Of a stretch of DNA of 64,000 nucleotides, positions 3,292-58,587 are shown piece after piece. Position numbers and translations under genes: made by a program. Within the stretch, counting starts at the first letter, position 1; each line of letters opens with the position of its first letter. Origin of the DNA: Candidatus Magasanikiibacteriota bacterium (GTDB taxonomy: Bacteria > Patescibacteriota > Patescibacteriia > Magasanikbacterales > GWA2-37-8). The stretch lies in the NCBI GenBank assembly GCA_963802255.1, contig CAWDHY010000002.1, positions 183,480 through 247,479 of the forward strand. The letters run 5' to 3'. The notes below the pieces were generated by a model. The model was not told the DNA's origin. It searched no databases and was given only the letters and a program-made list of their open reading frames with translations.

Positions 3292-4197
3292 ATGTATTCT
3301 GAAATAGCATCCAACAAACGCAAATCCATTCTGCTGGCCATGCTTTTTATCGCGATGATTATTTTACTCGGCTGGATTTTCGACCAAGTCTATGGCGAAG
3401 GCAGAACATATACCGGCATTACAATCGCCATATTATTTTCACTCGGCATGACAGCCATCTCATATTTTTCAGGTGATAAAATTGCTTTGTCGGCTACCGG
3501 CGCCAAACCGATCTCTCATGACGAAAATAAATACGTATTTCACCTTGTGGAAAATCTTTGCATTTCCGCGGGTGTTCCTATGCCAAAAATATATTTAATT
3601 GAAGACCCGGCCATCAACGCTTTTGCCACAGGCCGAGACCCAAAAAATGCTTCCATTGCCGTCACTCGCGGCGCGGTTGAAAAATTATCTAACGAAGAAC
3701 TTGAGGGCGTGCTTGCTCATGAGCTGTCACATGTAAAAAATTACGATATCCGTTTTATGATGCTGGTCGCGGTGATGGTTGGTTCAATAACTATTCTGGC
3801 TAATTTTATGTTGCGTTCCGGAGGGCTAGTCCGTGGCGGAAAGAACAGCAACCGCGAAGGAGGCTCGCAACTTTTTGCAATTCTGATGATTGTCGGTATT
3901 GTCCTTGCCATTCTTTCGCCATTTATCGCCGAACTTATCAAATTGGCAATTTCCCGCAAACGCGAATATTTGGCCGACGCTTCCGCCGCTTTACTCACCC
4001 GCTACCCGGATGGCTTGGCAAATGCATTGGAAAAAATTGCGACGGAAAATATCCCAATGCGCAAAGCATCCACGGCTACTGCACATTTGTTTATTTCCAG
4101 TCCTTTCAATGGTGGCCGTAAAAAATTTGCTTCGTTTTTTTCCACTCACCCGCCGGTTGAAGATAGAATAAAAAAGTTAAGAACAATGGGGGTGTAG
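3292..4197 (+). CDS. htpX: M48 family zinc metalloprotease (HtpX-like)
   Basis: HELSHVKNYD HExxH motif, multiple TM segments, C-terminal FSTHPPVEDRI motif. Confidence 0.8.
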   Translation: MYSEIASNKRKSILLAMLFIAMIILLGWIFDQVYGEGRTYTGITIAILFSLGMTAISYFSGDKIALSATGAKPISHDENKYVFHLVENLCISAGVPMPKIYLIEDPAINAFATGRDPKNASIAVTRGAVEKLSNEELEGVLAHELSHVKNYDIRFMMLVAVMVGSITILANFMLRSGGLVRGGKNSNREGGSQLFAILMIVGIVLAILSPFIAELIKLAISRKREYLADASAALLTRYPDGLANALEKIATENIPMRKASTATAHLFISSPFNGGRKKFASFFSTHPPVEDRIKKLRTMGV

Positions 4198-4228
4198 GTA
4201 TAGAAATCAAAAGAAACTCAAAAAACAA

Positions 4229-4249
4229 GAGCCGCTCCGAGAGCGGCTC
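4229..4249. terminator. GC hairpin gagccgctc/gagcggctc between convergent htpX and the 4281-4508 gene
   Basis: Near-perfect inverted repeat between two converging transcription units; no strong T-tract. Confidence 0.45.
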
Positions 4250-4280
4250 ATAAGCTTAAAGAACAAATCCTTCTTGCATC

Positions 4281-4508
4281 TCATTTTCTCGATGAAATTT
4301 CATCCACCAGCCGGCGCTCTTCGGGGTTCAGCACCACTTCTTCTTGTTCGTGGCTAAAATCGTCTTCGAGCAAAAACTGCACTGCTTCCGGATGCCACGA
4401 ATCCCTAGCGCCTTCAACTCCTCCCCTTCTGCGGCTTCTCCCGCCATCTGACGAGATGCCGTCAAATCTTGGTTGGTAGAGATCCTCGCTTCTCGCCCTC
4501 TTTCTCAT
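4281..4508 (-). CDS. small Arg-rich hypothetical protein (75 aa) encoded in a GC-rich island
   Basis: ORF preceded by a strong SD (aaggagggaaaATG) and a TTGACA-N17-TAAAAT promoter at 4552-4580; local GC well above the genome background. Confidence 0.45.
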   Translation of the reverse strand: MRKRARSEDLYQPRFDGISSDGGRSRRRGGVEGARDSWHPEAVQFLLEDDFSHEQEEVVLNPEERRLVDEISSRK

Positions 4509-4551
4509 TTTCCCTCCTTTTTCCCCAATTCATTTTGGGAGTGAAAAAATA

Positions 4552-4580
4552 ATTTTATCATAAATACATAAATATGTCAA
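4552..4580 (-). promoter_or_regulatory. sigma70-type promoter (TTGACA N17 TAAAAT) for the GC-rich small gene
   Basis: Consensus -35 with 17-nt spacer and an AT-rich -10 on the minus strand. Confidence 0.5.
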
Positions 4581-4648
4581 TAAAAAACAGGCTTTTCCAG
4601 CCCGTTTTTTAATTTCTTATAAATCTATATTAGTACTTATAGTATCTC

Positions 4649-4981
4649 TCATCTCTTTCTACCACGCGTCACCGGTCCAAAAATCACGTCAAATACCCGT
4701 GCCTTTCGAACTTTTCCATTTTTTGATTTAAGCCATACACTGCCTTCTAAACGGTCTATCTTTGTAACAATGTATTCAAACATTCTCAAATCATCACCGA
4801 GCTTGGCTTTATAAACCATTTTTTCTTTTAGACCGGTATTTTTAAGCCGGTCGGAAATTTTTTGCTTTTTCTCATTTGCTAAGTCCTTTAAGCCCTCGCT
4901 GACTTTGCCAAAAGCATCTGCCCGACGTTTTTGCCACGAGCTGTCTTTATTCCCCGCGCGTAGATGTTTTTTTATTGACAT
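4649..4981 (-). CDS. hypothetical basic protein (110 aa)
   Basis: Intact ORF with native AT-rich composition, immediately downstream of the phosphohexomutase gene. Confidence 0.5.
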   Translation of the reverse strand: MSIKKHLRAGNKDSSWQKRRADAFGKVSEGLKDLANEKKQKISDRLKNTGLKEKMVYKAKLGDDLRMFEYIVTKIDRLEGSVWLKSKNGKVRKARVFDVIFGPVTRGRKR

Positions 4982-4985
4982 ATAA

Positions 4986-6350
4986 TTATAAATTAATTAC
5001 ACCGCTTATTTCTTTTGTTTTTTTCTCCATCAAATCTTTTGACCGCGCTTCCAAATTCAGACGCAACAATGATTCCGTGTTGCTTGCCCTGACATTAAAC
5101 CAAAAATCAGAATAAGTAAAAGTCAAGCCGTCCAACTCGTTCAATTTTGCGTCTGCATATTTCTTGCGTAACCTAACGAGCGCCGCTTCTTTATCTGAAA
5201 TCTTAAAATTAATTTCTCCGGAATGAAAATACCTTTTTAACGGCCGCGCGTAATCGGCTAAAGACAGTCCCGTTTCATCCAGCTCTAAAAGCAATTTTAA
5301 AATAACCAGCATCGGGGCTTCATAAACGCCGTGCGGAAACTTCACGAAAAAATGACCGGAAGATTCTCCGCCAAATACTGCCCCGACTTCCAGCATCTGT
5401 TTTTTTATCAGAGAATGCCCCACTCTTGTCACAGACGGCACACCGCCATTTTCCAGAATCATATCTTCAGTGATTTTACCCGGACGAATATCGTAGCAAA
5501 TTGTCGCCCCCGGATAATCACGCAGGAAAATTTTAGCCATAATACCCCGCAAAATAGCCGGTTCTAACAGTTCACCCTCATTATCAATAAAAAATATACG
5601 GTCGCCGTCACCGTCAGTGGCAATGCCTAAATCGGCATTTTCCTGAATTACGCGCTTTTTTAAATCAAAAATATTTTCTTCCTGAAAAGGATCCGCCTGA
5701 TGCGCCGGAAATGTGCCGTCAAGTTCAAAATTCATTTTTACAAGTTCAATTTGCGGCAAATCGGCGAATAATTTTTCCAAATATTGCGCCCCCATGGCAT
5801 TCGCCGGGTCAACGACAATTTTATATTTTAAAATTTTATTTAAATCAACGCCCCGTTCTTCATATTTTACCTGCTCATCCAAAATCCCCTCTTGTTTTTT
5901 CACGCTTCCCTTTACCGGCGCATCCGTAAAGTTGTTGTCTTCAACTAGTTGTTTAAGCTCTTCCATACCACTACCTGCTCCCAGCGACTTGGAATTTTCT
6001 CTCGTAATTTTTATGCCATTATACTCTTTGGGATTATGCGATGCCGAAACCATCAACCCTCCGTCAACACCGAGATGACAAACGGCGAAGTAAAAAGTTG
6101 GAGCTGAAACCAAACCTATATCAATTACGTCGGCCCCCTGATCGGTGAGGCCGCGTATCACGGCATCTTGAAGCGACGGCGAAGACACACGCATGTCCCG
6201 GCCGGCAACTATTATTAATTTTTCTTTTTTTTCTTCACTTTTTCTTAACACGACAAATGCCCGCGCAATTTTGTACGCTAAATCTTCGGTCAGTTCCGCG
6301 CCGTAAATTCCGCGCACGTCATAGGCCTTAAAAATATTCGGAATGCTCAT
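4986..6350 (-). CDS. phosphomannomutase/phosphoglucomutase (alpha-D-phosphohexomutase family)
   Basis: FKAYDVRGIYG N-terminus, active site SASHNPKEYNGIK, metal-binding loop GIATDGDGDR, sugar-binding GGESSGH. Confidence 0.85.
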   Translation of the reverse strand: MSIPNIFKAYDVRGIYGAELTEDLAYKIARAFVVLRKSEEKKEKLIIVAGRDMRVSSPSLQDAVIRGLTDQGADVIDIGLVSAPTFYFAVCHLGVDGGLMVSASHNPKEYNGIKITRENSKSLGAGSGMEELKQLVEDNNFTDAPVKGSVKKQEGILDEQVKYEERGVDLNKILKYKIVVDPANAMGAQYLEKLFADLPQIELVKMNFELDGTFPAHQADPFQEENIFDLKKRVIQENADLGIATDGDGDRIFFIDNEGELLEPAILRGIMAKIFLRDYPGATICYDIRPGKITEDMILENGGVPSVTRVGHSLIKKQMLEVGAVFGGESSGHFFVKFPHGVYEAPMLVILKLLLELDETGLSLADYARPLKRYFHSGEINFKISDKEAALVRLRKKYADAKLNELDGLTFTYSDFWFNVRASNTESLLRLNLEARSKDLMEKKTKEISGVINL

Positions 6351-8969: not shown

Positions 8970-9806
8970 ATGGCCAATCCAGCGCCACAAGATAACGAGG
9001 AATTAGACACCGGACTGTCTTTTGATAACGAGCCCAGCGATCTTGAAAAACGTGCCACTGAACTGCAAAGACAAAGGTCATTGTCCAGAAAAACACAAAA
9101 CGATTATCTGCAAAAACAAGATGAAGGACCAAAAACTGAATTCGCCGGCATGGAGCACCCGGAAATCGGCGAGCTGTCGGAAAAACCGGCGGAAGGAGAA
9201 TCTGAAGAGGAAGAAGAAGATAGTGAAGGATATGAGGAAGGAGAAAGTGGTGAAGAAGAACAAGAAATGCCAGACGAAGAACAGGCGGAAGGTCCCGCAA
9301 ACGCGAACCAGCCAAAAATTAACCAGCTACGAACGGCAAATTTAAAAATTACCAGACAAATTCAGGATATTCAAAAAGGAATTGAGAAAGGCCTTACTCC
9401 AATAAAAAGGCAGTTATCCGCATCAAAAATTGCTGACCGGTCTAAAAACGCGATGAGGGCAATAAGATACTGCGGCGCTGGTTTCGCTCTTTGGTATACC
9501 ATAATTTTACCGCTTCTTGCTCTGTTCGGTATTCTGGCAATTGCGCTGTTGTGGTTAGCCGGTTTCAATCTTGGCCCACCCTCTCCAAAAACAAGAACTT
9601 TGGAGCAACAATTAAAAAATACCAGAAAAATGCTGAAAAAGCAGATGGACCAGAGAATCCGCCCTCTTCGTCAACAACTCACGCAAATTAATAGACAGCT
9701 TAATTCATTACAAATGAGAGGCGCGCCTTCCGGAGGACGGTCTCCGGCTTGGGGAATGAGCGAAATGAGAAGAAATTATTCACCGCCAAAACAAAAAAAT
9801 ATTTAA
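8970..9806 (+). CDS. hypothetical membrane protein with highly acidic (poly-Glu) N-terminal region
   Basis: ORF starts 4 nt after clpC; E/D-rich low-complexity stretch encoded by GAA-rich DNA, then one TM helix (WYTIILPLLALFGILAIALLWLAGF). Confidence 0.5.
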   Translation: MANPAPQDNEELDTGLSFDNEPSDLEKRATELQRQRSLSRKTQNDYLQKQDEGPKTEFAGMEHPEIGELSEKPAEGESEEEEEDSEGYEEGESGEEEQEMPDEEQAEGPANANQPKINQLRTANLKITRQIQDIQKGIEKGLTPIKRQLSASKIADRSKNAMRAIRYCGAGFALWYTIILPLLALFGILAIALLWLAGFNLGPPSPKTRTLEQQLKNTRKMLKKQMDQRIRPLRQQLTQINRQLNSLQMRGAPSGGRSPAWGMSEMRRNYSPPKQKNI

Positions 9807-9839
9807 TCTTTCCAATAAAACAAATATTTAATACATAAT

Positions 9840-11066
9840 ATGTCGGACAGAACAAAAAGAATCTTACTAATTGCCGCACTTTTGGCTGTAACAGCGCTAT
9901 TAGCTTTTGCCCTATATTATTTATTCAAAAAAGCCGGCCCCTTGGCCGGTGTTATTCCAACCCCAACGGCCACACCAACTACACCGGGCGGATTGCCGTC
10001 AGCCGGCGGACGCGTTACTACTACTCTTCCGAGCGGAGAAGTTACCACGACTTTACCGGTCGCTGGATATATCCCCGGCGTTCAACCAAGCTATTACCGA
10101 GCGGAAGCTGTAACAAAAATTGCCGACACTCCGACCACCTACCCGTCACTGTCGGAAAGCGGCAATTACCGCTATTACGACGCGACCGACGGAAAATTTT
10201 ACCGCATAATGCCCGACGGTTCAATTACGGCATTAAGCGAACAAGTTTTTTATAATGTTAAAAATGTGACTTGGGCAAACAACGCCGACAAAGCCGTGCT
10301 GGAATATCCCGACAGTTCAAAGATTATCTATAATTTCGAAACACAAAAACAAGTCACCCTGCCAAAACACTGGGAAGAATTTTCTTTTTCTCCGGACAGC
10401 ACGGAAGTGGCCGCAAAAGCTATCGGATTATCTCCCGAAAACAGATGGCTTGTAACCATTAACGACGATGGTTCAGGAACAAAATTAGTTGAACCAATGG
10501 GAGAAAACGGTGATAAAGTAATTGTTGACTGGTCGCCAAGCAAGCAGGCGGTAGCATTCTCCCTTACGGCGCGGGGCTTGGGATTATACCGAAAAGAAAT
10601 TTTCTTAGTCGGCTTAAACGGTGAAAATTTTAAATCTACAATTGTGGAGGGTCTGGGTTTTGAGCCAAAGTGGTCGCCGACAGGACAAAAATTGGCTTAT
10701 AGCGTTTATAGTGACCGCAGTAATTTTAAGCCGGAACTCTGGGTCGTTAATTCATATGGACAAGAAATAGGGTCCGGACGGCAAAATCTTGGTCTGGCCA
10801 CATGGGCTGAAAAATGCACCTTTAGCGGTGATACTACAATGTACTGCGCCGTACCTCGCAATTTACCGCAGGGTGCCGGTATTAAACCGGAAATAGCATC
10901 CGGTTCAACCGATGATCTCTATAAAATCGATCTGACGACTGGATTAAAAACAACAATCAACACCGACGGAAATTATTCAATCAATAATCTTTCTTTTGAC
11001 GAAACTAACAATCGCCTCCTTTTCACCGATCCTGCACAAAGCGGAGTTTTTGAAGTTAAATTATAA
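9840..11066 (+). CDS. TolB-like beta-propeller (PD40/WD40-like repeat) protein with N-terminal membrane anchor and Pro/Thr-rich linker
   Basis: N-terminal TM, PT-rich linker, repeated DWSPSxxxxAFS and PKWSPTGQKLAYS motifs typical of PD40 repeats. Confidence 0.55.
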   Translation: MSDRTKRILLIAALLAVTALLAFALYYLFKKAGPLAGVIPTPTATPTTPGGLPSAGGRVTTTLPSGEVTTTLPVAGYIPGVQPSYYRAEAVTKIADTPTTYPSLSESGNYRYYDATDGKFYRIMPDGSITALSEQVFYNVKNVTWANNADKAVLEYPDSSKIIYNFETQKQVTLPKHWEEFSFSPDSTEVAAKAIGLSPENRWLVTINDDGSGTKLVEPMGENGDKVIVDWSPSKQAVAFSLTARGLGLYRKEIFLVGLNGENFKSTIVEGLGFEPKWSPTGQKLAYSVYSDRSNFKPELWVVNSYGQEIGSGRQNLGLATWAEKCTFSGDTTMYCAVPRNLPQGAGIKPEIASGSTDDLYKIDLTTGLKTTINTDGNYSINNLSFDETNNRLLFTDPAQSGVFEVKL

Positions 11067-48589: not shown

Positions 48590-49828
48590 CTAGCTTGAGG
48601 GGGAATGTTGCTTGAGGGTGGACATGGCCGCCGCGATCTCGTCCTGTAGGGTCGTTTGCAAAGCCTCTTTCGCTTTGGCCATCCTGTTCCTGGCCTCAAC
48701 GATCGCCTTCTGCATGGCAGCGGTTTCCATATCACACTCGGCCACGACGGCCAGCTTTTCATCCTGCTTTTGTTTCAGAATGGACCGACGGGAAGAGAGG
48801 TCTGCGAAGAGACTGGAAAGCTCGGACTCGACGCTCCTGATGTCCTGCATGACTTTGGCATGCGATACGCGCAAGCCCGCGAGCTCCTTGCTTTTGTCAA
48901 CCAGGTCTTCGCGCACAGTCGCCAGCTCTCGCGTCTCGTAGGTCAGCCTGGAAATCACTCCCCGAAGCAGGTCGTTCACCAGCTGCCTCGCCACGATCAC
49001 CGCGTTGTTCTCGTTGACCTCATCGGCCATTACTGCAAGCGACTCGTTGTCGGGGAAAATGATACCCACTTCGGAAAGAGCCTGACTGATCAGGCGGCTG
49101 TCGCGCAAACGACCGCCTTCGGTCGCCGAATTGGCGACTACGATTCTTTCTTCGGCTGACTCCATCTGACGGAAAGCCGCCGCTTCTGCCGCTTCTGCTT
49201 CGCGCAGACGCGTTTCGGCTTGCTCTCTCCGCGCGGAAGCCGCCTCGAATTTCTCTTGAGAGAGAATCTCGGTCGCAATCGCGTCACGCTCGGCGTTTTC
49301 AATATCCGCCTTCAATTGGTCAATCTGATGATAGACTTCTTCGAGCTCGATACGCTTCTGTCCGATGGCCTGATGGCCCTGCATGATCTTGTTGGCCAGC
49401 ATGTCCAATTCCTGAACACGCTTGTCCATTTCTTCGAGCGCTTTCTCACGGCTTCTTTTGGAAGTCGATCCGGCCATCAGCCGTTCAACGGTTTCCTGAA
49501 GCGCCACGAACTCTTCCGATTCCTTGCCGATCTTGAGGATGAAAGCGACATACGAACAGACCTGGGGTGGCTTTACCAGCCGGACGTTCTTGGCGATGAA
49601 TTGCCGAATAACCCATATCGCATCATCTTTTTCCACCCGTTCGGGCTGAAAAATATGCGCGAACACCTCACAAAGGTTGTGCTCGAATTCCTTGTTGACA
49701 CTGCGTAGGAGGCCTAGCAAGCGGTCGGCGTCATCGTTCGTGGGCGGTCTGGGCATCTGAGCGAAGAGCATTACCAGCAAGCTGATAATCTCGTCTTTTG
49801 AGTACTCCGTTTCCCTGTTTTTTGCCAT
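48590..49828 (-). CDS. GC-rich (about 53-57% GC) 412-aa protein: about 110-aa N-terminal globular region followed by an about 300-aa coiled coil
   Basis: Single long ORF across the GC-rich island; SD aaagggtga 5 nt before the ATG; heptad-like E/A/R/L-rich sequence. Confidence 0.6.
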   Translation of the reverse strand: MAKNRETEYSKDEIISLLVMLFAQMPRPPTNDDADRLLGLLRSVNKEFEHNLCEVFAHIFQPERVEKDDAIWVIRQFIAKNVRLVKPPQVCSYVAFILKIGKESEEFVALQETVERLMAGSTSKRSREKALEEMDKRVQELDMLANKIMQGHQAIGQKRIELEEVYHQIDQLKADIENAERDAIATEILSQEKFEAASARREQAETRLREAEAAEAAAFRQMESAEERIVVANSATEGGRLRDSRLISQALSEVGIIFPDNESLAVMADEVNENNAVIVARQLVNDLLRGVISRLTYETRELATVREDLVDKSKELAGLRVSHAKVMQDIRSVESELSSLFADLSSRRSILKQKQDEKLAVVAECDMETAAMQKAIVEARNRMAKAKEALQTTLQDEIAAAMSTLKQHSPSS

Positions 49829-54402: not shown

Positions 54403-54431
54403 AAAAACGGGCCAGAACGGCCCGTTTTTTT
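54403..54431. terminator. bidirectional intrinsic terminator aaaaacgggcc-agaa-cggcccgttttttt
   Basis: Perfect stem with flanking A- and T-tracts. Confidence 0.75.
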
Positions 54432-56637
54432 ATAAATCACCAACATCTCTTAAAAAACTTCCCGGACTTATTTTTATTTGCGAATCTTCGTCTATATATT
54501 CTACTTCGTCTGAATCATCGAGCGACAAACTCCGCCCATTGCCGAGAAGTGATTTATCGTCCAAAAGTTCACTGTCAATTTCTTCCAAAAATATACTTGG
54601 TCCTGGCAATGCGTCGCCCCAGCCCGAGGCTGGCCGGCCTTGGGCCGGGCCGTTCTCCATCGGATAAGTTAAAAATAAATTTTTCTTGGCGCGGGTGATA
54701 GCGACATAAAATAATCGCCGTTCTTCTTCAATCCCGCCCCGTTCACTTGCCGCCCTGCTATTTGGGAACGCTCCGCTCGCCAGGTTGATCATAAATACGG
54801 CCGACCATTCCAGCCCTTTCGCCTGATGCACGGTAGAAAGTACTATTTTTTTGTCTGTCGGCACTTTGTTATTTTGATTTTTTTGACCATAATCCTCCGT
54901 CAAATTCGCTTCAGCTAAAAACTCGGCTAAATCATTAAACTTCCCGGCATAAATCACCAATTGTTCAACATCGCCACGGCGGTCCCGGCTGTCAAAATAT
55001 TCAGCCTCCAGATAGTCATTATAGCCGGTCTCCAAAATCGTCCGCACCAGTTCAGCCGGGTGGCTGGTGCCGATACCAAGAAGCTCATCCCATATCCGCG
55101 TAAAATTTTGCCAGCCAACTTTTGCTTTTTCGCCCAACATATCAAGACCGATTGATTTGATTTCAGATACATTTGCCGCACCGCGAACCGCCTGATAAAT
55201 TTTTTGCGCCGCCACCGGCCCAATTCCTTCTTCTTTTAACAATATGCGCATCCACGCTGCTTCATCAGCCAGATTACTTAGCAAACGCAAATAAGCAAGC
55301 ACATCTTTCACGTGCGCCCGCTCAAAAAAGCGCACACCACCGCGATAGTCATAGGCAATGCCGGATTGCGCCAGTGCCATTTCCAATTGTTGAGAATGGT
55401 GTGAAGCACGAAACAAAACGGCGATTTCTTTAGGCGCGACACCTCCGTCTAAAATTTCAGAAATTTTTCTTACCACAAAATCCGCTTCTGCTGCCTGGTC
55501 TGCTTGCGGTCTTAACTCCGGTTTTACTCCGCTTTGAAAAATTGTTTTTAAATTTTTCTGATATTGATTTATGTTATTAGCGATGACATCGTTAGCTAGC
55601 GACAAAATCTCCTGGCTGGAACGATAATTTGTTTCCAGTTTAAAAATTTTAGCATCAGGATAATCTTTCCCAAAGCTCAAAATATTTTCAATGTCAGCGG
55701 CGCGAAAAGAATAGATGCTCTGCGCGTCGTCGCCTACCGCTAACAGGTTGCCGTGTATTGATGCCAATTTTTTAATAATGCTTGCCTGAAGGCGGTTGGT
55801 ATCCTGATATTCGTCAACTAAAATGTATTTGAATTGATTCGCGTATTTGGCCAAAATCATATTGTCATCCTGAACTTGTTTCAGGATCCTTTTTTCTGTT
55901 TTATCAGATGCTGAAATAAATTCAGCATGACCTGGACGCTGTAAAAGCAAAAGTAAATTCGCCAATAAATCATCAAAATCCATTGAATTCGACGCGCGCT
56001 TTCTTTTTTCATAATCACCGGCAATCTGTTTTATTTCTTCAGACCATCTGAACCAGCTCGGATATTTTATATCTAAAACATCTTCAATTGTTGTTTCAGC
56101 ATTACGGGCATAGCTTATTATGCCTTTTATCACGCCAGCCGAAGGAAATTTTTGTCCGCCTGTTTCCAAATTTAAATTTTTCAAGCTAAGTTTTACCAAC
56201 GCTTCGCTGTCATCGGCGTCTAAAATTGTAAAATTTTGTTGATAACCGATTACGCCGGAATATTTTCGTAAAATTTTGTAGGCAATATGATGAAAAGTTC
56301 CGGCCCAAGGCAAAACGTTCATCGTTTTGTCATTCCGACCGACCCGCCAGCTGGCGGGGAGCGGAGGAATCCCTTCGGAAACGCCGGAGGGATCCCTCGG
56401 CTTCGCTCGGGATGACAATTCGGCGACGCGTTTTATCATCTCCCCTGCCGCCTTGTTGGTAAATGTAACCAACAAAATATTTTCTGGGGATACGCCCTGC
56501 TCCAAAAGATAAGCCACGCGATAAGTGATAGTCCGCGTCTTGCCCGAGCCGGCGCCGGCCAATACTAAACAAGGGCCATCGCCTGTGAGGACGACGGCCA
56601 ATTGTTCCTGATTAAGTTCTGATGAAAAATCAGTCAT
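54430..56637 (-). CDS. UvrD/PcrA-type superfamily 1 DNA helicase carrying a 30-aa in-frame insertion from a palindromic repeat element
   Basis: Motifs AGAGSGKT, TFTNKAA, TFH, DEYQDTN, VGDDAQSIY; the GC-rich insert encodes RAKPRDPSGVSEGIPPLPASWRVGRNDKTM between motifs I and Ia. Confidence 0.85.
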   Translation of the reverse strand: MTDFSSELNQEQLAVVLTGDGPCLVLAGAGSGKTRTITYRVAYLLEQGVSPENILLVTFTNKAAGEMIKRVAELSSRAKPRDPSGVSEGIPPLPASWRVGRNDKTMNVLPWAGTFHHIAYKILRKYSGVIGYQQNFTILDADDSEALVKLSLKNLNLETGGQKFPSAGVIKGIISYARNAETTIEDVLDIKYPSWFRWSEEIKQIAGDYEKRKRASNSMDFDDLLANLLLLLQRPGHAEFISASDKTEKRILKQVQDDNMILAKYANQFKYILVDEYQDTNRLQASIIKKLASIHGNLLAVGDDAQSIYSFRAADIENILSFGKDYPDAKIFKLETNYRSSQEILSLANDVIANNINQYQKNLKTIFQSGVKPELRPQADQAAEADFVVRKISEILDGGVAPKEIAVLFRASHHSQQLEMALAQSGIAYDYRGGVRFFERAHVKDVLAYLRLLSNLADEAAWMRILLKEEGIGPVAAQKIYQAVRGAANVSEIKSIGLDMLGEKAKVGWQNFTRIWDELLGIGTSHPAELVRTILETGYNDYLEAEYFDSRDRRGDVEQLVIYAGKFNDLAEFLAEANLTEDYGQKNQNNKVPTDKKIVLSTVHQAKGLEWSAVFMINLASGAFPNSRAASERGGIEEERRLFYVAITRAKKNLFLTYPMENGPAQGRPASGWGDALPGPSIFLEEIDSELLDDKSLLGNGRSLSLDDSDEVEYIDEDSQIKISPGSFLRDVGDL
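56329..56418. repeat. GC-rich palindromic repeat element of about 90 bp (copy U) inserted in frame in uvrD/pcrA; RPE-like
   Basis: Terminal inverted repeats TTGTCATTC ... GGATGACAA; internal palindromes cccgccagctggcggg and gagggatccctc; about 75% identical to the copy in tgt. Confidence 0.6.
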
Positions 56638-56642
56638 AGTAA

Positions 56643-57275
56643 TTATTCGTCCATCCCGACCACCCGAAGCGGCGCATCAAGTTCATTTATTTTTTTCTCC
56701 AGCTTATCCACTATCTCCGAATACGACCCGATAAAATTGACTTTGTGCTTGCCATTTTTGTACAAATCATCCTCAAAAACCACAGACAACATAAATAATA
56801 AATCTTTTGTTTTAGATTTCATGGCGCGCACATTCCAGCCGAGAATTTTGCTTCTAAACCAAGGATCAGAGTCAAAATATTCCGATAAAATATTTTCCAG
56901 CGATCTCACATCTTTTACCTTTGGCCCTTCCTCGCGCATACCGGTCAATCGTCTGACAACTCTTTTATGGATTTCCTTTGTCACTTGTGATCCCCGGGTA
57001 AATTTCTCCCTCATACTCTGCTTAAACTCTTCTTCATTTTTGTATCTGGCTTTAATATATTTTCCATTTTCATCTTTGACAACATCAAGAAAACGCTCCA
57101 CCCTGCTCAGCCCTTCGTCGTCCGGCTCATGGGCATCCGCATTATATGGTTCATTGATATCACCAAACCACGGAACATGAAGTTCACCGTTTGGATCAAT
57201 GACGAACGGGTACTCTTTTTCACTTTTTTCCCGGTCTCCTCCCTCCAATATAACCGGCCTAAATTTTTCACTCAT
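56643..57275 (-). CDS. hypothetical protein (210 aa) co-directional with the helicase, 6 nt downstream
   Basis: Intact ORF; charged soluble protein. Confidence 0.45.
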   Translation of the reverse strand: MSEKFRPVILEGGDREKSEKEYPFVIDPNGELHVPWFGDINEPYNADAHEPDDEGLSRVERFLDVVKDENGKYIKARYKNEEEFKQSMREKFTRGSQVTKEIHKRVVRRLTGMREEGPKVKDVRSLENILSEYFDSDPWFRSKILGWNVRAMKSKTKDLLFMLSVVFEDDLYKNGKHKVNFIGSYSEIVDKLEKKINELDAPLRVVGMDE

Positions 57276-57308
57276 AATATTTACTTAGCGTCACTATCCT
57301 ATCAAATA

Positions 57309-57337
57309 TTGATTCACCGGTCAAAATGTGATATATA
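57309..57337 (+). promoter_or_regulatory. promoter TTGATT N17 TGaTATATA upstream of tgt
   Basis: Hexamers with extended -10, 30 nt before the ATG. Confidence 0.45.
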
Positions 57338-57366
57338 TGTCCCGTAAGGACATCTAACCAGCTATC

Positions 57367-58587
57367 ATGCCAGCATTTTTTGAACTAATTCACGAAGACA
57401 AAAAAACCGGCGCGCGCGCCGGAATTATACATACCGACCACGGGGACATACCAACCCCTTGTTTTATGCCGGTCGGAACTCAGGCGACTGTTAAAACTCT
57501 GGACCAAACCGATTTAGAAAAACTGGACGCGCCAATCATCCTCGGAAATACTTACCATCTTCATCTGCGCCCGGGTGAGGACCTCATCCATGAGCTCGGC
57601 GGACTGCATGAATTTATGAATTGGAAACATCCAATTCTAACTGACTCCGGAGGCTTCCAGGTTTTTAGCCTGGGATTGCAAAAAGAAGGAAAAGGACAAG
57701 GAGGACTAGTGGAAATTGATGAAGATGGCGTGGCTTTCAAATCGCATATCGACGGCTCCACGCATCGTTTCACTCCGGAATCAGCCATCCAAATTCAACA
57801 CAAACTCGGCGCGGATATAATTATGGCCTTTGATGAATGCACGCCTGACAGCGCGCCATACGAATATACAAAAGAAGCAATGGAGCGGACACATCGCTGG
57901 GCCGAGAGATGCTTGGCCGAACATGAAAAGCTCGGCCGTGTCATTCTGAATGGAGCGAAGCGAAGTGAAGAATCCCTTGCGGCTCGCAATAAGGGATCCT
58001 TCGCTAACGCTCAGGATGACAAACCGCATAACCAATTTCTTTTTGGCATCATTCAAGGCGCCAAACACAAAGATCTGCGCGAAGAGTCGGCCCGATATAT
58101 TTCTTCGCTTGATTTTGACGGCATCGCTATCGGCGGAGAATCAATCGGATATAATATGGAGGCGACCGCAGAAATAATGAACTGGTTAAAACCGATTTTG
58201 CCGAAAGACAAACCGCGCTACACAATGGGCGTCGGACTTTCCCCAAGTGATTTGCTGAAAGTAGTGTCAAATGGCGCGGATATGTTTGACTGTGTGGCGC
58301 CGACCCGCCTAGCCCGCCACGGTATGCTGTTTATCAAAAATGATGAAGAAAGAATAAATATTAATAACGCGCAATTTGCCAAAGATTCATCACCGATTGA
58401 TAAAAATTGCGATTGTCCGGTATGCGCAAAATATTCTCGCGCCTATATTCACCATCTATTCAATGCCGGGGAAATGACCGGCCAGCGTCTGGCAACAATT
58501 CACAACATTCACTTTATGCTGAATCTGATGCGTGAAGCGCGACGGGCTATTTTGGAAGACAAATTTGAAAAAATGATAAAATTATAA
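57367..58587 (+). CDS. tgt: queuine tRNA-ribosyltransferase (tRNA-guanine transglycosylase) with an about 28-aa in-frame insertion from the palindromic repeat element
   Basis: TIM-barrel motifs (DSGGFQ, zinc site CDCPVC...H); the GC-rich insert encodes GRVILNGAKRSEESLAARNKGSFANAQDDKPHN before the conserved QFLFGIIQG. Confidence 0.85.
   Translation: MPAFFELIHEDKKTGARAGIIHTDHGDIPTPCFMPVGTQATVKTLDQTDLEKLDAPIILGNTYHLHLRPGEDLIHELGGLHEFMNWKHPILTDSGGFQVFSLGLQKEGKGQGGLVEIDEDGVAFKSHIDGSTHRFTPESAIQIQHKLGADIIMAFDECTPDSAPYEYTKEAMERTHRWAERCLAEHEKLGRVILNGAKRSEESLAARNKGSFANAQDDKPHNQFLFGIIQGAKHKDLREESARYISSLDFDGIAIGGESIGYNMEATAEIMNWLKPILPKDKPRYTMGVGLSPSDLLKVVSNGADMFDCVAPTRLARHGMLFIKNDEERININNAQFAKDSSPIDKNCDCPVCAKYSRAYIHHLFNAGEMTGQRLATIHNIHFMLNLMREARRAILEDKFEKMIKL
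57940..58022. repeat. GC-rich palindromic repeat element of about 83 bp (copy T) inserted in frame in tgt; same family as the copy in uvrD
   Basis: Shares gtcattc..gaatccctt..agggatcc..cgctc.ggatgacaa blocks with copy U; internal stem gaatccctt / aagggatcc. Confidence 0.6.

Follow-up and report, generated by a model that had tools for sequence, protein, structure and literature searches.

Rickettsia palindromic elements (RPEs) were reportedly described by Ogata et al. in 2000 and 2002 as in-frame palindromic repeats of Rickettsia. The classical RPE-1 is about 150 bp long. Here we consider a candidate element of this kind in a 64,000-nucleotide stretch of DNA (the window) from Candidatus Magasanikiibacteriota bacterium (contig CAWDHY010000002.1), a member of the Patescibacteria, or candidate phyla radiation (CPR). 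The element under study, referred to below as the flagged segment, is a GC-rich sequence at 56329–56418 within a UvrD/PcrA-type helicase gene. A sequence-only reading of the window had taken it for one copy of an RPE-like family that enters open reading frames (ORFs) without destroying them.

The second group of repeats relevant to this locus is formed by the REP (repetitive extragenic palindromic) sequences and their inverted doublets, the REPINs. REPINs are said to be mobilised by RAYT tyrosine (HUH) transposases, as put forward by Bertels and Rainey in 2011. REPIN/RAYT systems are lineage-specific and vertically inherited.

REP sequences fall into superfamilies set by the unpaired tag at the end of the unit, which is GTAG or CGTC (Di Nocera, De Gregorio and Rocco, 2013; PMC3733652). 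In the CGTC superfamily, as described there, the tag is often TGTC or CCTC, the stems are of 8–9 bp with loops of 4–5 nt and a 3-nt tail, and almost all stems open with complementary A-T at the first and second positions. The units mostly form dimers with the tags outside, separated by spacers of 20–100 bp which frequently have complementary ends. Intragenic dimers encode 20–30 residues, and many of the interrupted genes are involved in replication or repair; the UvrD/REP helicase is named among them, as are queA and truB, and REP insertions recur in UvrABCD, RecBCD and polymerase genes. The authors speculate that insertions in repair genes could modulate mutation rates. The superfamily is described there as lacking an associated transposase. 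RPE-6 of R. conorii is CGTC-1 and RPE-4 is CGTC-4, and the intragenic peptides of CGTC-1 include VIPAKAGI, SFPRKRES, CHSRESGNP, DSRFRGND and IPAFAGMT. The hosts reported there belong to five phyla and are mostly Alphaproteobacteria, with no Patescibacteria among them. Coding GC-rich palindromes, that is, hairpin repeats which are read through, are also described from the mitochondria of Nematomorpha (PMC6649704).

The flagged segment and its insertion site

From its anatomy and from the empty sites of related genes, we propose that the flagged segment is an intragenic inverted dimer of two REP-like units with the architecture of the CGTC/TGTC-tagged REP superfamily, and would put the probability of this at roughly three in four. 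The features concerned are as follows.

54430–56637, minus strand: host gene, a UvrD/PcrA-type superfamily-1 helicase of 735 amino acids (ORF; its best solved relative is PcrA, 1pjr, E 1e-101)
56328–56417: flagged dimer of two TGTC-tagged REP-like units, tags outside; read in the minus-strand frame as S75–D103, SSRAKPRDPSGVSEGIPPLPASWRVGRND
56328–56370, plus strand: left REP unit, with tag TGTC, stem ATTCC/GGAAT and an apex expanded into CCCGCCAGCTGGCGGG
56371–56391: spacer including the 3-nt tails, CCC-TTCGGAAACGCCGGA-GGG, 21 nt, self-complementary
56392–56417, minus strand: right REP unit, TGTC-ATCCC-GAGCGAAGCCGA-GGGAT, with GCGAAGC within the apex

Written as a single strand the unit is TGTC-ATCCTGAGCGAAGCGAAGGAT-CCC, and AKPRDPSGVSEGIPPLPASWR is an example of the peptides that would be produced if the element is read through. 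The sequence agrees with its earlier description. Both internal perfect palindromes were found, the first being the 16-nt cccgccagctggcggg at 56343–56358 (the same as CCCGCCAGCTGGCGGG) and the second gagggatccctc at 56387–56398 (the same as GAGGGATCCCTC). The near-perfect terminal inverted repeats, TTGTCATTC and GGATGACAA, can pair at 8 of their 9 positions, and the element ends in the inverted termini TTGTCAT...ATGACAA; the mismatch between the terminal repeats is explained by the left and right units differing at position 6. The expanded apex is seen in copies of a related locus (L001, below) as well.

The GC content of the flagged segment is 62% (90-nt windows) as against 42.6% for the window as a whole, so that the surrounding sequence is not markedly AT-rich. 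In folding, a check which the sequence-only reading had suggested, the segment as a single strand gave -66.8 kcal/mol (z = -6.5; none of 200 dinucleotide shuffles matched it) and the opposite strand gave z = -6.3. Among 80-nt windows across all 64 kb the flagged segment is the top GC-corrected folding outlier, at -5.3 standard deviations (SD).

The closest relatives of the helicase protein are labelled Candidatus Magasanikbacteria or Patescibacteria. Positions 56329–56418 are exactly codons 74–103 of the minus-strand ORF, and to this extent the 30 in-frame codons claimed earlier stand; when compared to empty orthologous sites, however, the insertion comprises 29 codons (S75–D103, 56329–56415), L74 being a codon of the host gene. 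The insert leaves the frame intact and contains no stop codons. Its placement between helicase motifs I and Ia had to be revised. The alignment to PcrA breaks between query residues 76 and 111 (PcrA 81 and 88, with PcrA 82–87 corresponding to query 77–110), and the insert therefore lies after motif Ia and before the WAGTFHH block. Motif Ia we take to be TFTNKAA (residues 58–64), and the WAGTFHH block (residues 111–117) is presumably motif Ib, the names following general knowledge of superfamily-1 helicases.

Three syntenic loci, L001, L002 and L003 (80, 77 and 70% protein identity, respectively), were compared with the window by codon alignment. In all four the gene order is tgt, a small ORF and the helicase gene, followed by rpsL, rpsG and fusA. 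The state of the three insertion sites is as follows.

Helicase site 1 (flagged segment): filled in the window and in L001; empty in L002 and L003
Helicase site 2: filled in the window; empty in L001, L002 and L003
tgt site: filled in the window; occupied by a different element in L001 and by an unrelated GC-rich family in L002; empty in L003

At helicase site 1, L002 reads GAA CTG / AAA ACT where the window reads GAA TTG [TCATCC...AATGAC] AAA ACG. The element at the tgt site of L001 is of the same subfamily as the helicase copy of the window, and the Tgt protein of L003 has 378 amino acids. Since close orthologues have the empty site, as an orthologue alignment had been expected to reveal, the element was inserted into a helicase gene that already existed. 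We also considered that the segment might be a variable helicase loop of ancestral origin, or an artefact of assembly or chimerism, and can give this almost no credence. Homologues do differ in the length of the loop that separates motif Ia from the TFHH block; yet this DNA unit is also present in tgt, in further genes and in unrelated phyla, and the peptide of the tgt insert recurs almost unchanged in an orthologue from another data source (P0123). L001 comes from an independent assembly (GCA_026396515.1) and carries the insert at the identical site, which makes the assembly artefact envisaged in the sequence-only reading unlikely.

Between the window and L001 the helicase element has 84.5% nucleotide identity, the mean for the gene being 79.9 (SD 5.3). 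Since the identity of the element matches that of the gene, the shared helicase copy predates the split of the two lineages.

L002 also contains an intergenic cluster (9831–10156) of four tandem GTC-tagged units in the same orientation, upstream of rpsL. The apices in this cluster are variable and include GAGCGGAGCGA and expanded CCGCCAG..GGCGG hairpins. Arrangements that are intergenic or head-to-tail are thus found in this CPR clade as well.

Other copies in the window and inserts in orthologous proteins

The window was searched for further copies by a scan for GTCAT...ATGAC combined with folding, and by a second scan for tagged stem-loops. Both scans located three dimers in the 64 kb, two in the helicase gene (56329–56416 and 55864–55931) and one in tgt (57940–58020), all of them in frame and none intergenic. 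The flagged segment is thus one copy of a family, as had been proposed, with further copies in the window, in relatives and across the bacteria. The additional features are listed here.

55863–55932: second helicase dimer, AT-richer, at about residues 236–260, GHAEFISASDKTEKRILKQVQDDNM; 8-bp stems, 5-nt loops and a 20-nt spacer; its units are ATCCTGAA-CTTGT-TTCAGGAT and ATGCTGAA-TTTAT-TTCAGCAT
57367–58587, plus strand: second host gene, tRNA-guanine transglycosylase (Tgt), 406 amino acids
57939–58021: tgt dimer, read on the plus strand as V192–D218, VILNGAKRSEESLAARNKGSFANAQDD; left apex GCGAAGC, right apex GCGTTAGC

The tgt copy is in frame as the earlier reading had it, but its identity to the flagged element is 61% (aligned columns of a multiple alignment) and not about 75%. 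It was recovered by nhmmer with the flagged element at E = 0.002, and residues 183–210 of the Tgt query are extra relative to the TGT of Z. mobilis.

Among the six units of the three window dimers, five carry the tag TGTC and one GGTC; all six start with AT and end with AT. The tails are CCC, CCC, CCT and CTG (the published consensus is CCA), and the two tails of the flagged element pair with each other. All three dimers have the tags outside, with spacers of 20–22 nt. Both stems at 55863–55932 are of 8 bp and both loops of 5 nt, for which the published values are 8–9 bp and 4–5 nt, while the flagged and tgt units have five Watson-Crick pairs followed by G.A/A.G, two G-C pairs and a GAA loop, or an expanded apex.

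An AlphaFold2 model of the helicase, with 30 orthologues as input, had a mean predicted local distance difference test (pLDDT) score of 69.6. The segments below 50 include residues 79–106, 236–258 and 659–682, and the ten-residue blocks beside inserts 1 and 2 score mostly 87–94, with lower values around 659–682. Since these three segments coincide with the two dimers and a small palindrome, the inserts are modelled as unstructured loops on a confident helicase core. We predict that the insert is translated and forms a surface loop, tolerated and probably disordered, and that it is a passenger and not a functional domain.

The small palindrome is a further in-frame insert of nine residues, GPAQGRPAS, at helicase residues 663–671 (54625–54651), and coincides with the low-scoring residues 659–682. 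This palindrome, GGCCCGGCCCAAGGCCGGCC, has 77% GC and is of a type different from the flagged element; L002 has it, while L001 and L003 do not.

To see how widespread such inserts are, we turn to 120 helicase orthologues from Patescibacteria/Magasanikbacteria (P0001–P0120) and 120 Tgt orthologues (P0122–P0241). The helicases have a median length of 684.5 amino acids (range 668–822), and 58 of the 120 have at least 12 residues in rare alignment columns, clustered at about ten positions. The median for Tgt is 386 amino acids; at least 10 extra residues were present in 36/120, clustered at three or four positions, and the window's own site is occupied in about 23 orthologues by several families. 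Recurring insert peptides are LSSRAK...GIPPL...GRND, CHPERSEGSL...RDSS..QND, VILSEAKDL...PQNDN, VIPAKAGIQ...DSRLRGND and CHSRESGNPE. The peptides of CGTC-1/RPE-6, namely VIPAKAGI, CHSRESGNP and DSRFRGND, or near variants of them, are thus found in inserts of CPR helicase or Tgt orthologues. The alignments show that several repeat families have repeatedly entered the same, apparently permissive loops in the orthologues of both proteins.

These observations bear upon the possibility that the insert is adaptive, that is, that it tunes the helicase and Tgt, or forms an mRNA structure controlling translation or decay. The orthologous copy has been retained since the split of the window and L001 with a conservation at least equal to that of the gene, the structure is very stable on both strands, and the recurrence of REP insertions in repair and polymerase genes cited above (PMC3733652) would fit such a role. 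Presence and absence differ, however, from one close relative to the next, the same loop is occupied by unrelated families, and copies of this family in other phyla lie mostly in intergenic DNA or at the ends of genes. In the model the residues are coil of low confidence, and non-synonymous changes make up 5 of the 9 differing codons in the element as against 99 of 305 in the downstream gene, although the numbers are small. We regard an adaptive insert as unlikely on balance. Under the proposal of a REP-like passenger dimer, selection in gene-dense genomes would remove those insertions which are not a multiple of three, not free of stop codons or not in a loop.

Several observations on the inserts may be added. 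Other GC-rich insert families, not related to the GTC-tagged units, are present in the same loops in L002 tgt (4151–5419, minus strand) and in the L002 helicase, and also in orthologues P0005–P0011, P0048, P0054, P0128 and P0140; their peptides include SPNPSL..PPLTKRG / SPYKGEG..PLLTKERxEVR, STVYGLQ..KTEDRR and GGPASGGE. As to reading phase, about 38 of 38 inserts in the helicase and about 24 of 31 in Tgt have N/D-D as the reading of the 3' end ...RATGAC, these events not being mutually independent. Seven Tgt inserts read it as ...(G/R)MT, the third phase would give a TGA stop, and the 5' end is read in all three phases. N/D-D as the invariable reading of ...RATGAC was discarded, given these seven Tgt inserts and the occurrence of both readings in the R. 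conorii table; a strong bias stays.

A search for loci by helicase alignment returned, among the matches listed, mostly distant helicases, and only L144–L147 had at least 46% identity. In one of these more distant helicases (L146, 48% identity) there is a 53-nt heterodimer at 9420–9472 with a 6-nt spacer, in which a CGTC-1-type unit, ATTCCCGC-GGAA-GCGGGAAT, is paired with a second type, ATCCCCGG-CTTGA-CCGGGGAT.

Elsewhere in the window, a minus-strand ORF of 412 amino acids (48590–49828) has many Ala, Glu and Arg residues and, by eye, resembles a coiled coil. The ORF lies in a 706-nt stretch with a GC content of up to 0.70 (window mean 0.43) and may be foreign.

Distribution, conserved structure and movement of the unit

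One genome per species was scanned with the pattern GTCATYCYGAGCGAAGC N{42,72} GRATGAC. This gave at least 120 stretches where about one would be expected (our own estimate, on uniform base composition). The hosts among the matches listed belong to more than ten phyla. They include Acidobacteriota, Nitrospirales, Bacteroidota, Gemmatimonadota, Verrucomicrobiota, Chloroflexota, Planctomycetota, Bacillota and Cyanobacteria, several classes of Proteobacteria, Desulfovibrio, Bdellovibrionales and Saccharimonadales, and among them are the cultured isolates Hymenobacter, Mucilaginibacter and Helicobacter marmotae. Most of the genomes listed have their copy between ORFs or at the end of a gene. Judging by these matches, the unit family of the flagged segment is not specific to CPR.

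Nineteen viral contigs from IMG/VR (L125–L143) also match the unit family. One of these (L141) has copies at 3989–4071 and 5388–5470, between small ORFs and beside an ORF of about 556 codons which was read as a terminase from its sequence alone. Since the family occurs in viral contigs, phages may carry it between hosts.

In the copies so collected, the outer 25 nt or so of each arm are nearly constant and the centre is highly variable, with 118 distinct 10-mers among 125 copies. The flanking base is T at -1 in 97 of 122 copies and A at +1 in 104 of 122. Target-site duplications of 3 nt or more were not found above chance in the 122 copies, and none was present at the three window copies. The unit consensus is (T)GTC - ATYCY GA GC GAA GC GA RGRAT - C. 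Covariation was almost perfect within 97 canonical units from many phyla, which are of the type of the right unit of the flagged segment: the pair 6–22 is T-A in 49, C-G in 48 and never anything else (Fisher p = 8e-29), and the pair 8–20 is T-A in 71, C-G in 25 and T.G in one (Fisher p = 3e-22), with all four combinations of the two pairs present. Between the arms, position 6 is mismatched in 51 of 125 copies. Because of the covariation within arms and the mismatches between them, the conserved object is the stem-loop of each arm and not a long hairpin formed between the arms. A simple symmetric pairing test of the central region was also tried and failed, there being indels or side hairpins in one arm of many copies.

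Exceptionally stable DNA mini-hairpins are known with the sequences GCGAAGC (Tm 76.5 C) and GCGTTAGC (Tm 69.5 C) and are found at single-strand replication origins and primase sites (PMC13037366). The apices seen here are such documented mini-hairpin sequences, namely GCGAAGC and GCGTTAGC, together with GCGAAAGC in CGTC-1. No link between REP units and these mini-hairpins was found in the literature.

These data allow the manner of spread to be considered. One candidate is a classical MITE (a miniature inverted-repeat transposable element), that is, a deletion derivative of an insertion sequence which is moved as double-stranded DNA by a DDE transposase binding the terminal inverted repeats. 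The inverted termini TTGTCAT...ATGACAA, the small size and the many copies are what one would look for in a MITE. Set against this are the lack of target-site duplication above chance, the fact that the termini are each a covarying hairpin, the pairing of one with the other being often broken, and the failure to find a transposase with these ends in any locus examined, PMC3733652 likewise describing the superfamily without one. We consider a MITE origin improbable, more so than an adaptive role. For REP-like units, spread would instead proceed by recognition of each unit as a folded hairpin of single-stranded DNA, with a chemistry like that of REP/REPIN and IS200/IS605 and not by cut-and-paste DDE transposition. 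This route is suggested by the absence of target-site duplication, by covariation within units accompanied by broken pairing between them, by the mini-hairpin apex, and by analogy with REP/RAYT and IS200/IS605.

A number of points weigh against the interpretation as a REP-like dimer of the CGTC type that spreads in this way. In the flagged units, five Watson-Crick pairs are followed by a tandem G.A/A.G and by a mini-hairpin of 2 bp with a loop of 3 nt, or else the apex is expanded, which departs from the 8–9 bp stems and 4–5 nt loops published for the superfamily. No significant match to a RAYT-like ORF was obtained when the window and 223 loci were searched by tblastn, the queries being three RAYT/TIRYT sequences, and no transposase was found between the paired copies of L141, L119 and L042, where the ORFs are those of phages or ordinary genes. 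Between the window and L001 the conservation of the element equals that of the gene, and some constraint upon it is conceivable. That the same loops are hit recurrently might be due to a targeting of repeats already present, and not to selection alone.

Searches for a prior description of the family were negative within their scope. Literature searches with the DNA arms or the encoded peptides gave no description of a unit family with a GCGAAGC apex, and those for such repeats (MITEs, palindromic elements) in Patescibacteria/CPR gave nothing relevant, a REP survey of 2025 being without Patescibacteria. Rfam returned only chance-level matches (E of 2 or more) for 55500–58300, and the encoded peptides correspond to no family of Pfam or NCBIfam. 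A search for other host proteins with the concatenated 59-residue peptide gave no candidates, the peptide search of a representative library gave one irrelevant repeat protein (P0121), and a metagenome scan with the subfamily core GGAATCCCTTCGG...GAGGGATCCCTC gave nothing.

A broader picture may be ventured, although we hold it as doubtful. The TGTC family with GCGAAGC/GCGNNAGC apices might be a single element of conserved sequence, present in most phyla of bacteria and on some phage contigs, which is maintained and moved by a widely distributed enzyme of single-stranded DNA that recognises the unit hairpin. In Patescibacteria, where intergenic space is scarce, this family and its sister families might to a large extent, and still today, supply essential proteins with new surface loops.

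Significance and comparison with known systems

In-frame REP units in UvrD/REP helicase genes, and dimers of 20–30 residues in repair genes, are already known as a kind from PMC3733652. What is new is the host phylum, a unit family for which we found no description, the intragenic extent in CPR and a covarying unit across phyla. The locus extends the CGTC/TGTC-tagged REPs, a poorly understood class which includes RPE-4 and RPE-6, to the candidate phyla radiation, in whose small, gene-dense genomes such repeats are largely located within essential genes. About half of the helicase and a third of the Tgt orthologues sampled have extra residues at loop sites that recur. For annotation, such repeats account for odd GC-rich stretches and low-confidence loops in CPR proteins, and for many spurious short ORFs with peptides such as VILSEAKDL or ASLRMT. 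The covariation within the unit, together with its nearly identical sequence across phyla, offers a handle on what moves CGTC-type REPs. Worth following are how far such repeats have colonised genes in CPR and how well the unit is conserved from phylum to phylum.

The hairpins of Nematomorpha mitochondria, as far as the abstract of PMC6649704 goes, are alike in being hairpin repeats within protein-coding sequence, and differ in that the sequences and hosts are unrelated. The likeness to REPINs is closer: an inverted REP doublet of one hairpin of about 70–110 nt, each unit a hairpin with an unpaired tag, no target-site duplication and a non-autonomous nature. The tag is TGTC here and not GTAG, however, no RAYT-like ORF was found in the sequence examined, and the sequence of the flagged unit is nearly identical across phyla, in contrast to the lineage-specific REPIN/RAYT systems.

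With the CGTC superfamily the flagged and tgt dimers share the TGTC tag, the A-T/T-A start, dimers with tags outside and spacers of about 20 nt with complementary ends, and less clearly the 3-nt tail. On the account in PMC3733652, they also share intragenic dimers of 20–30 residues and UvrD/REP helicase and tRNA-modification hosts; no linked transposase was found in the sequence examined here, and the dimer at 55863–55932 has the 8-bp stem and 5-nt loop geometry of CGTC-2. The GCGAAGC-type or expanded apex is a difference, and so are the peptides VILSEAKDL, CHPERSEGS, SSRAK... and RFAQDD, which are absent from the intragenic table of that paper ('SEAK' gave no match).

From the RPEs the flagged element differs in its host phylum, and its units are set apart from CGTC-1 (RPE-6) and CGTC-4 (RPE-4) by the encoded peptides; no relation to the classical RPE-1 was apparent. 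Like the RPEs, it is a palindromic repeat that sits in frame in housekeeping genes and is tolerated there, with orthologues that have empty sites. The RPE-like behaviour proposed at the outset, entry into an ORF without its destruction, is thus upheld by the empty sites, the intact frame and an anatomy of the superfamily of RPE-4 and RPE-6. The resemblance goes beyond analogy, since a TGTC-tagged REP dimer would belong to the very superfamily that holds RPE-4 and RPE-6.

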